Assembly: GCF_054482525.1 (NCBI RefSeq)
Contig: NZ_CM137006.1
Reading direction: 5' to 3' (one strand)
Length of the DNA stretch: 64,000 nucleotides
A program made the position numbers and the translations under genes. The notes under the pieces were generated by a model. It had not been told where the DNA came from. It did no database searches and saw only the letters and a list, made by a program, of their open reading frames with translations. Positions 68-40,993 of the stretch are shown here, one piece after another (positions within the stretch are counted from its first letter, which is position 1; each line of letters starts with the position of its first letter).

Positions 68-143
68 AAGAGCACCAGAGCCTGCCATTGGCAGGCTCTG
101 ACTGATGACAAAGTCTAAAAATGTGCCCGGCCAGTCCCCTCGA

Positions 144-176
144 CCCTCCGGGGAGAGGGTTAGGGTGAGGGGAACA
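144..176. repeat. Short GC-rich interspersed repeat (core GGGAGAGGGTTAGGGTGAGGG); an inverted second copy lies at 45069-45101
   Basis: Direct comparison of the two copies in this window (reverse-complement match). Confidence 0.5.
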
Positions 177-202: not shown

Positions 203-238
203 CCAGATGCGACGCTGACGCGTCTTATCTGGCCTACA
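203..238. repeat. REP (palindromic unit) element
   Basis: GCCAGATGCGACGCT...GCGTCTTATCTGGCCTAC imperfect palindrome typical of E. coli REP sequences. Confidence 0.55.
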
Positions 239-309: not shown

Positions 310-1212
310 TTATTGATAAACAAAAGTCACGCCAATAATCGATTGCACATTCCCTGCAGTCACCTGCCCTCCGGTACGTGCGTAATTTGCCGTTAATCCC
401 AGACTTACCGCCGAAGTCCCTACTGCTCCTAACGATACCGTGTTATTCGCTGGAATAATCGTACCGTTGCGCGTCAACTGTACGCCGACGCCCTGCGCTG
501 GTGAAAACGAGGCGGTATTGGTGAAAATCGAGTTGCCCGCATCTGCGGTTGTGCCGGAGAGGTAATACCCCAGGTTTTGGCTTTTCGCACAATAAACGGT
601 AAGAGGAATTGGCACTGAACCAGGGTAGTCCGGCAGAGTAACGGTGACATCACGAGCAGAAACATCGCAGCCACCAGTGGGCACCACCACATCATTATTG
701 GCGTAAATATTCCACACAAACTGAAAATCATCGCTGTTATAATTGTTGGTCTGTCGCAAAATAAGCACGGCAATTAATGAACCAGCTTTAATCGCCACCC
801 CGCCCGCACTGCTCACAGGCGTCAAATAAAGCGCCACCGGCCACGGCTTATCCGTTCTCGAATTATAAACAACGCGCGGCGTTTCGCTGGTGGTCGGAAA
901 TGGATAGCTACTGCCACTATATTTTACGGTCCCGGAAAAATTAGATAACACGACGCCGTAAGCCGAGCCTCGTTGCAGTGTGACATAGTCTGTAATGGTT
1001 TCCGGATAATCGTTATGGCAAAAGATTTGCGTCGAAAGATCCACGACCAGGTTTTGCCCCACATTCACGGCGGGCGCAAGGTTTACATAAACATTGGCGC
1101 TGCCACCGCCAATAGGGATAGCTGTACCATTGGCGGTTTTACAGGCGAATGACCAGGCATTTACCGACCAGCCCATCAGCAGTACAGCAAACAGGGTAAT
1201 AACTCGTTTCAT
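310..1212 (-). CDS. fimH: Type 1 fimbrial adhesin FimH (mannose-binding tip adhesin)
   Basis: ORF track 310..1221; start trimmed to MKRVITLFAVLLMGW; protein recognised as FimH; operon context. Confidence 0.95.
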   Translation of the reverse strand: MKRVITLFAVLLMGWSVNAWSFACKTANGTAIPIGGGSANVYVNLAPAVNVGQNLVVDLSTQIFCHNDYPETITDYVTLQRGSAYGVVLSNFSGTVKYSGSSYPFPTTSETPRVVYNSRTDKPWPVALYLTPVSSAGGVAIKAGSLIAVLILRQTNNYNSDDFQFVWNIYANNDVVVPTGGCDVSARDVTVTLPDYPGSVPIPLTVYCAKSQNLGYYLSGTTADAGNSIFTNTASFSPAQGVGVQLTRNGTIIPANNTVSLGAVGTSAVSLGLTANYARTGGQVTAGNVQSIIGVTFVYQ

Positions 1213-33003: not shown

Positions 33004-33088
33004 TGGTGCCGAAGGCCGGACTCGAACCGGCACGTATTTCTACGGTTGATTTTGAATCAACTGCGTCTACCGATTTCGCCACTTCGGC
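33004..33088 (-). tRNA. leuX: tRNA-Leu (anticodon CAA), leuX
   Basis: Reverse complement reads GCCGAAGTGGCGAAATCGGTAGACGCAGTTGATTCAAAATCAACCGTAGAAATACGTGCCGGTTCGAGTCCGGCCTTCGGCACCA, 85 nt with CAA anticodon loop and CCA end. Confidence 0.95.
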
Positions 33089-40956: not shown

Positions 40957-40993
40957 CCTGATGCGACGCTGGCGCGCTTTATCATGCCTACAC
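40957..40993. repeat. REP (palindromic unit) element downstream of yjgR
   Basis: GCCTGATGCGACGCTGGCGCGCTTTATCATGCCTACA. Confidence 0.55.

Follow-up and report, generated by a model that had tools for sequence, protein, structure and literature searches.

Identity of the repeat

What is the short GC-rich repeat that lies between gntP and fimH and turns up again, as its reverse complement, between pepA and holC? Both sites are found in a 64,000-nucleotide stretch of contig NZ_CM137006.1 (RefSeq assembly GCF_054482525.1), hereafter the window, and an earlier note made from its letters alone had taken them for a small family of interspersed extragenic repeats, separate from the repetitive extragenic palindromic (REP) units of the same stretch. 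Both sites are copies of BoxC, a repeat that also goes by the names PIT element, TMECO and HPG1. The BoxC identity of the two copies was already known, the gntP–fimH copy being catalogued in K-12. The family also appears, from sequence, to be tied to genes for DUF559 (YcjD-type, Vsr-like PD-(D/E)xK) endonucleases, in a manner resembling REP units and the REP-associated tyrosine transposases (RAYT), and this association is the only part of the analysis that may be new.

The same core does stand inverted at two distant sites, as had been noted. The 21-mer GGGAGAGGGTTAGGGTGAGGG is present exactly at 151–171 on the plus strand and at 45069–45089 on the minus strand, two exact matches in the window against 0.00 expected from 100 dinucleotide-preserving shuffles. 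No third copy of the 21-mer was found in the window at three or fewer mismatches, and degenerate searches also gave only two. Both copies consist of three blocks, with a C-rich block and a short loop followed by GGGAGAGGG, TTA and GGGTGAGGG. The limits first given for the second site (45069–45101) stand, while those for the first (144–176) were slightly off, the element running from 136 to 172. Gene starts and stops confirm the gene context that had been read at each site: site 1 lies in the spacer between the convergent genes gntP (stop 65–67) and fimH (stop 310–312, minus strand), and site 2 starts 13 nt past the pepA stop codon (45054–45056) and ends 89 nt ahead of the holC start (45190). 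The two copies and their parts are as follows.

136–172, plus strand: BoxC/TMECO copy 1, type A, mutated; CCCCTCGACCC-TCC-GGGGAGAGGG-TTA-GGGTGAGGGG
136–146, 147–149, 150–159, 160–162 and 163–172, plus strand: parts of copy 1, in order the C-rich block (CCCCTCGACCC), loop, first G-rich block, loop TTA and second G-rich block
151–171, plus strand: 21-nt core GGGAGAGGGTTAGGGTGAGGG, the HPG1 sequence; four G3 tracts with 3-nt loops, fitting the canonical G-quadruplex motif
45069–45101, minus strand: BoxC/TMECO copy 2, type A, perfect; CCCTCTCCC-TTA-GGGAGAGGG-TTA-GGGTGAGGG
45101–45093, 45092–45090, 45089–45081, 45080–45078 and 45077–45069, minus strand: parts of copy 2, in order the C-rich block, loop, first G-rich block, loop and second G-rich block
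45081–45101, no strand assigned: perfect 9-bp palindrome with a 3-nt loop (CCCTCTCCC TAA GGGAGAGGG), hairpin possible on either strand
45142–45149, plus strand: additional GGGTGAGG block, 40 nt downstream of copy 2 and complementary to 45069–45077

Could the likeness of the two sites be accidental, or confined to a short GC-rich palindrome? Low sequence complexity is all that speaks for this, and we consider its probability practically nil: the 21-mer is exact with 0.00 expected, the three-block layout is common to both sites over 33–37 nt, and tens of thousands of copies exist in Escherichia coli. The TAA palindrome that the earlier note saw overlapping the repeat at site 2 is the C-rich block pairing with the first G-rich block, and is therefore a part of copy 2 and not a separate feature. 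With the additional GGGTGAGG block, the plus strand at site 2 can be read as a C-rich block, first G-rich block, 40-nt loop and second G-rich block, and the additional block may be left over from an element that was symmetrical or paired. At a Pseudomonas locus (L086), the element exists in a 45-nt form that is fully symmetrical.

BoxC was reportedly described by Bergler in 1992 and by Bachellier in the 1990s. Its core is about 35 nt, or about 56 bp with conserved flanks, and is built of one C-rich and two near-identical G-rich blocks. The original K-12 record annotated it as a 56-bp repeat with 32–33 copies (PMC2267715, PMC5172473). Holder et al. (2015) equated TMECO with BoxC and with the PIT (‘potential intrastrand triplex’) elements of Hoyne and Maher (2000), and gave the pattern 5′-CCCTCNCCC-N3-6-GGGNGAGGG-N3-GGGNGAGGG-3′, with TTA as the second loop in type A; their Table 1 holds 23 MG1655 copies, number 23 being fimH–gntP at MG1655 4549848–4549883 (PMC4666352). 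Kaplan et al. (2016) reported the exact 21-mer as the G-quadruplex motif HPG1, with 13 identical copies in MG1655 and the fimH–gntP copy as HPGQ 52 (PMC5100583).

Site 1 is orthologous to both TMECO number 23 and HPGQ 52. Like the published elements, the window copies are intergenic members of a multi-copy family with the same pattern, and site 2 fits the strict TMECO pattern exactly, but is absent from K-12 and hence lies outside the K-12 table. Site 1 fails the strict pattern in its C-rich block, which is CCCTCGACCC, although both G-rich blocks and the TTA loop fit. Because its catalogued K-12 orthologue has the C-rich block CCCTCGCCCC, site 1 is a BoxC member by descent with one substitution. 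The base concerned is position 143, which is A in the window and C in K-12 and most strains; this C-to-A variant is rare, matched by only 13–14 genomes at 99% or above, and favours pairing with the second G-rich block. From HPG1 there is no sequence difference, the 21-mer being identical (core dGGGAGAGGGTTAGGGTGAGGG with a C-rich region before it), though the regulatory-switch interpretation given to HPG1 (PMC5100583) is unsupported by the presence/absence data below. An Rfam scan of the whole window at the gathering threshold found no family at either element.

Copy number and polymorphism in E. coli

A 39-nt query over site 1 was searched against 5,426 complete E. coli genomes and matched at 83,581 places in 5,418 of them (median 17 per genome, range 1–30), with only 58 of these places on plasmids. 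The proposal of a small interspersed family thus holds, and the family is BoxC. All inspected E. coli copies are intergenic, both window copies and 17 K-12 copies lying between annotated genes.

Both window sites are polymorphic, and the variable segments are as follows.

101–181, no strand assigned: 81-bp presence/absence block with copy 1; Nissle 1917 and O157:H7 have 12 unrelated bp (TTCGGATTGTCG) instead
45057–45159, no strand assigned: pepA–holC spacer allele with copy 2; in 1,400 of 5,426 genomes (~26%) at coverage of at least 80%

The leader of the site 1 block (96–137) is single-copy in E. coli and present in 3,663 of the 5,426 genomes (~68%), and at the position of site 2, K-12, B and many other strains carry one to three REP units or bacterial interspersed mosaic elements (BIME) instead. 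Among strains the pepA–holC spacer has four lengths and the gntP–fimH spacer four variants, in agreement with the ‘intergenic change’ category of Holder et al. (PMC4666352). Since both are presence/absence alleles, copies 1 and 2 are dispensable. Comparison of filled and empty alleles gave no target-site duplication at either site. A clean insertion, as of a miniature inverted-repeat transposable element, was rejected, as at both sites one segment has taken the place of another (81 bp against 12 bp; BoxC spacer against BIME) without duplication. A longer dispersed unit at site 1 was rejected too, the leader being single-copy and only about 56 bp being common among copies.

Two observations on the surroundings of the copies can be added. 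The sequence CTGATGACAAAG..AAAA stands ahead of copy 1 (102–121) and ahead of a REP unit (58939–58958), a weak match whose score is reached by 1 of 100 shuffles and whose REP flank is low-copy; similar leaders stand ahead of three K-12 BoxC copies (gcvP, alx and fepB). Both sites are 100% identical in E. coli PCN033 but lie about 49 kb further apart there, a segment of that size having been lost from the window or gained by PCN033, possibly at the tRNA gene at 33007–33088 (minus strand).

DUF559 genes beside the element

Neighbourhood clustering of 120 fetched loci with the element showed no transposase; the recurrent neighbours all belonged to families that are large and common (molybdopterin oxidoreductases, histidine kinases, LysR and GGDEF/EAL proteins). 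DUF559 genes were missed by the clustering and surfaced through a targeted profile search of all open reading frames (ORFs) in these loci (~0.9 Mb). Three DUF559 ORFs were found there, and all three touch elements. At L035, a 129-aa DUF559 gene sits between perfect inverted repeats of about 65 bp with the element inside, and its ORF runs through the C-rich and first G-rich blocks to a TAG stop formed by the TTA loop. At L118 (Asticcacaulis), an inverted element pair stands on either side of the DUF559 gene. In the uncultured bacterium O72 (L107:1857–4490, minus strand), PriA carries an in-frame insertion made of the element peptide and then a complete DUF559 domain (PF04480, E = 4e-39), placed between the 3′-DNA-binding domain and the helicase domain.

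The K-12 DUF559 gene ycjD itself ends (…SPSP*) within a degenerate element, with an intact BoxC 168 nt downstream; this copy, beside fabI, was the first BoxC to be described. Part of the ycjD 3′ end is repeated immediately after the gene (GAGACGGTGCTGGAGAATATTC...; L141:290–560, minus strand, which is K-12 1351190–1351460), and each copy of the 3′ end terminates in a degenerate BoxC, with the intact BoxC after them. Among the best 120 YcjD homologues, which come from Enterobacter, Klebsiella, Kluyvera, Lelliottia and others at about 60% identity to YcjD, 67 end in PSPxPSP (mostly PSPRPSP) and 90 have an element-type peptide among their final 30 residues. Translating CCCTCACCCCGGCCCTCTCCC, which is the type-B core in reverse complement, gives PSPRPSP.

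A repeat-blind test used 12 distinct DUF559 loci chosen by protein homology, eight from a tblastn search of the plasmid collection and four being homologues without element-type peptides at their termini. Eight of the 12 pass a shuffle test (P ≤ 0.004), often with inverted blocks flanking the gene on each side; bracketing elements are seen at L150–152, L155, L143, L146 and L148. Near the DUF559 gene ends, 29 blocks were found where 1.5 are expected from composition (Fisher combined p = 5e-12), and these are 29 of 46 blocks, against 9 expected if uniform. Block sequences differ among lineages in step with the gene, from GGGAGAGGG/GGGTGAGGG to GGGGGAGGG/GGGGTGGGG in Azospirillum and L154, GGGAGGGGG in Deinococcus and Sphingomonas, and GGGGAAGG in L153. 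A nuclease gene bracketed by inverted copies of the repeat is thus seen across lineages, at L035, L118 and the seven test loci just named.

Of the E. coli genomes, 3,377 carry ycjD, and in a sample of 58 chromosomes those with ycjD have 15–29 matching places and those without it 1–18. DUF559 has been grouped with Vsr and the group I intron homing endonuclease I-Bth0305I in the PD-(D/E)xK superfamily (PMC3424549). Holder et al. did not find mobility genes near the element (PMC4666352), and we found no literature linking DUF559 or YcjD to BoxC, although reports in journals beyond our search are possible. Neither term stands in the title of a paper found, and the one abstract that names YcjD concerns the eef efflux pump.

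Distribution beyond E. coli

The exact 21-mer was also scanned for taxonomically, with one genome per species, which gave at least 120 matches as a sample rather than a census. The matches listed cover about 24 genomes without any enterobacterium, from alpha-, beta- and gammaproteobacteria, Thermodesulfobacteriota, and metagenome-assembled genomes (MAGs) of ‘Deltaproteobacteria’, Verrucomicrobiales and Candidatus Gracilibacteria. The Gracilibacteria MAG has the element on five contigs of up to 488 kb and 24–31% GC. A Methanomicrobiaceae MAG is also listed, with one short contig that may be a binning artefact. As the published motif set consists of 262 proteobacterial genomes (Holder et al., PMC4666352), the non-proteobacterial matches extend the known range.

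Of 124 copies, 123 have a C-rich block and short loop ahead of the 21-mer; the element is thus conserved as a whole, while its flanks differ from lineage to lineage. Azospirillum chromids carry the E. coli 38-mer consensus at 100% identity, with 3–37 copies each among the matches listed. In the plasmid collection the element is on 492 records, 103 predicted conjugative and 153 mobilizable (Klebsiella, Aeromonas, Enterobacter, Citrobacter), which contrasts with a published statement that it is absent from plasmids. Phages nearly lack it (3 of 50,697 records). Two 174-kb ‘Campylobacter phage’ records, MG065686.1 and MG065691.1, have three E. coli-type 38-mers each, at best 100% identical; this is odd for that host, and the records may be mislabelled or contaminated.

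In the Gracilibacteria MAG, which uses genetic code 25, the element enters genes. Five of its five copies lie within long ORFs (L023–L027; for example L025:1721–2959 on the plus strand and L027:2254–5274 on the minus strand). One of these ORFs encodes an IleRS, one a SufS-type cysteine desulfurase and one ribosomal protein L10, each with the element in frame, and a fourth encodes an unidentified protein. Aligned to solved SufS structures (E = 6e-87), the SufS-like protein is a net 8 residues longer exactly where the element encodes the peptide LTLTLSQRERG. In-frame structured repeats in conserved genes recall the Rickettsia palindromic elements, from which BoxC differs in its unrelated sequence and host range and in being strictly intergenic in E. 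coli.

In four unrelated lineages the element stands directly upstream of a large molybdopterin oxidoreductase gene (L006:4665–7793, L012:4288–7263, L031:699–3326 and L072:2822–5452; NarG-, NasA- and formate-dehydrogenase-like), which may be chance. Kaplan et al. found the motif statistically associated with iron-sulfur and anaerobic-respiration genes (PMC5100583).

Folding and regulatory signals

Folded as single-stranded DNA, site 2 gives a perfect 9-bp hairpin of −10 kcal/mol (z −3.2 to −3.4; 0 of 200 shuffles as stable). In DNA folds the mutated C-rich block of site 1 pairs better with the second G-rich block, and the K-12 version of site 1 also prefers this block, through a G-T wobble. 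In the RNA fold of site 2, 45070–45078 pairs with 45141–45149 around an inner hairpin (z = −4.2). The spacer RNAs as a whole fold far more stably than shuffles (z −4.2 to −5.8), values to which the adjacent REP and terminator hairpins contribute. Across the collected copies there is next to no variation in the two G-rich blocks, and the sequence has the block symmetry that C-G*G, T-A*T and T-A*A triads require. By circular dichroism (CD) and nuclear magnetic resonance (NMR), the G-rich strand of consensus oligonucleotides folds as an intrastrand purine-motif triplex (PMC4666352), and isolated strands show an ion-dependent G-quadruplex/hairpin switch (PMC5100583), with duplex forming when the complementary strand is present (PMC4666352, PMC5100583).

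No promoter-like site was found at either element in a scan of the sequence, and a terminator scan gave no hairpin with a T-run at either one, the sequences after the hairpins being AACCGATC and AACAGACC. As no U-run directly follows the hairpin, an intrinsic terminator was rejected. In K-12 the copies show no orientation bias, and their distances to ORFs, from 10 to 310 nt, are patternless.

Neighbouring REP units and other features of the window

The REP consensus is GCC(G/T)GATGCG(G/A)CG...CG(C/T)CTTATC(C/A)GGCCTAC, and the BoxC element does not match it. The units at 203–238, 40957–40993 and 58961–59048 are ordinary REPs without similarity to BoxC, as the earlier note had held, except that it began the third at 58905. 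The features beside copy 1 are as follows.

203–238, plus strand: REP unit beside copy 1, at the position of the type-B partner in K-12 inverted BoxC pairs
74–102, minus strand: terminator-like hairpin and T-run, reading in the fimH direction

Since the terminator-like hairpin reads in the direction of fimH, copy 1 and the REP unit would lie within the fimH 3′ untranslated region (UTR). The trailer of site 1, GAACAGACCAGCA, resembles the spacers of K-12 inverted BoxC pairs.

A REP-flanking motif, (A)AACAAAGCNCACTTTG, is common to 182–202 and 59049–59070, each adjoining REP units. Two Rfam matches lie elsewhere in the window: Ysr276, a Yersinia antisense small RNA, at 44103–44297 (minus strand; 186 bits against a gathering threshold of 100), antisense within the pepA coding region, and a full-length Magnesium-II riboswitch aptamer (RF01056) at 61896–62011 (minus strand; 126 bits).

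What maintains the element

Taken together, the most probable account to us, held with moderate confidence, is that the window copies of BoxC are non-autonomous or relic selfish repeats that are tolerated in spacers of the 3′ untranslated or convergent kind, and that the family arises or persists along with DUF559 genes. The window copies are probably not dedicated regulators of gntP, fimH, pepA or holC, and their main consequence would be structural, through a strong transcript hairpin and local instability of the spacer. The wider proposal, that BoxC/TM elements are the cognate repeats of DUF559 endonucleases in a widespread selfish system like REP/RAYT or homing endonucleases, is one we make tentatively and would put at somewhat short of even. 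Its autonomous unit would be a DUF559 gene bracketed by inverted elements, with the solo or paired BoxCs of E. coli (~20 per genome), the two in the window included, as non-autonomous or relic copies. Such a system would reach well beyond the Proteobacteria and would include the in-frame insertions into essential genes of the Gracilibacteria genome. When the common C-rich variant CCCTCGCCCC pairs with GGGTGAGGGG, the second G-rich block, the pairing includes a G-T mismatch, and Vsr nickases act on substrates of the T/G-mismatch class. The enzyme might recognise the folded element through this mismatch between the C-rich block and the second G-rich block, although recognition of a G-T mismatch in an alternative hairpin is speculation.

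REP/BIME units with RAYT (TnpA-REP), including REPIN doublets, are the best analogy for how BoxC may work. Both are short GC-rich palindromic extragenic repeats, often in inverted pairs, both have a single-copy nuclease gene flanked by the repeats that belong to it, and at pepA–holC REP/BIME and BoxC are alternative alleles. They differ in that there is no sequence similarity, BoxC has three blocks instead of a simple imperfect palindrome, and its candidate partner is a Vsr-like PD-(D/E)xK endonuclease, whereas RAYT is an HUH Y1 transposase. The Vsr family shares its fold family with DUF559/YcjD (PMC3424549), and this clade, with the T/G-mismatch nickase and I-Bth0305I, offers precedents for mismatch-specific nicking and for selfish homing, but BoxC elements are not introns and DUF559 proteins are uncharacterised.

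Several results weigh against a role of DUF559 genes or against mobility of the window copies. A profile search of its ORFs found no DUF559 gene in the window, and neither window site is a clean insertion, both being segment replacements without target duplications. Among the test loci, the Sinorhizobium DUF559 locus L144 has no element, and L153, L145 and L147 fail the shuffle test, with an element that is variant, weak or distant (L147 is marginal, and the variant of L153 was missed by the search pattern). The correlation of copy number with ycjD is confounded by descent, as ycjD is confined to phylogroups A, B1 and C and a few sequence types (PMC12817139). O157:H7 holds about 12 copies without ycjD, so current copies do not need the gene, and most element-bearing plasmids have no DUF559 (492 records with the element against 35 with the gene). 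The only solved DUF559 relative, 3hrl, is an uncharacterised ‘endonuclease-like protein’, and in the literature found no activity of a DUF559 protein on BoxC is reported.

Could the hairpins act in RNA instead? As a 3′-UTR or inter-cistronic structure the element might shield the mRNA ahead of it from 3′ exonucleases, or loosen the coupling of pepA and holC, as REP/BIME does. BoxC and REP/BIME are alleles at the same pepA–holC position, copy 1 precedes the terminator-like hairpin within the fimH 3′ UTR, RNA folding predicts structures much stabler than those of shuffles, and such a role is compatible with a selfish repeat. We nonetheless judge it unlikely, because the transcript strand differs between the two sites, the z-scores include the neighbouring hairpins, and strains exist without any element at site 1. 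Those same absences bear on the cis-regulatory switch of Kaplan et al. (2016; PMC5100583), in which the G-rich strand changes among G-quadruplex, hairpin and duplex states, or takes a triplex form, and so tunes termination or initiation of flanking genes. A canonical G3N3 G-quadruplex motif, the ion-dependent switch and triplex seen in vitro, the intergenic position of all copies, often near 3′ ends, and the extreme conservation across phyla all suit this explanation. Each window copy, however, is missing from a large share of E. coli genomes whose flanking genes are intact, orientation to genes is inconsistent between the sites and across K-12, and the distances to ORFs have no pattern. Duplex also wins whenever the complementary strand is present, the Gracilibacteria copies are inside coding sequence, and the in vivo tests of promoter, terminator and polymerase-blocking effects by Hoyne and Maher, as summarised in Holder et al. 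(PMC4666352), were all negative, which makes a switch improbable in our view.

Holder et al. (2015; PMC4666352) proposed that the element is an adaptive generator of local genome instability, its triplex stalling replication. The high polymorphism of both window sites, with four pepA–holC length classes and four gntP–fimH variants, would fit, as does the higher variability that they found around TMECO loci than in control regions (PMC4666352). Polymorphism is equally expected of any mobile or decaying repeat, however, and REP/BIME varies at the same site; no correlation was seen with changes in the Lenski long-term evolution experiment (PMC4666352), and selection for evolvability is a weak account of a 38-mer that is 100% identical between E. 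coli and Azospirillum. We consider this explanation very improbable.

Implications

The rediscovery of a catalogued repeat changes nothing by itself. BoxC has, however, gone three decades without an origin, a spreading mechanism or a function, and if the DUF559 association is true, the repeat gains a candidate partner enzyme, while a candidate substrate is found for a very large family of uncharacterised ‘endonuclease domain-containing’ proteins. Either question could then be tested by simple binding and nicking assays, and the association would explain why the same 35-nt sequence is found in bacteria of distant phyla.

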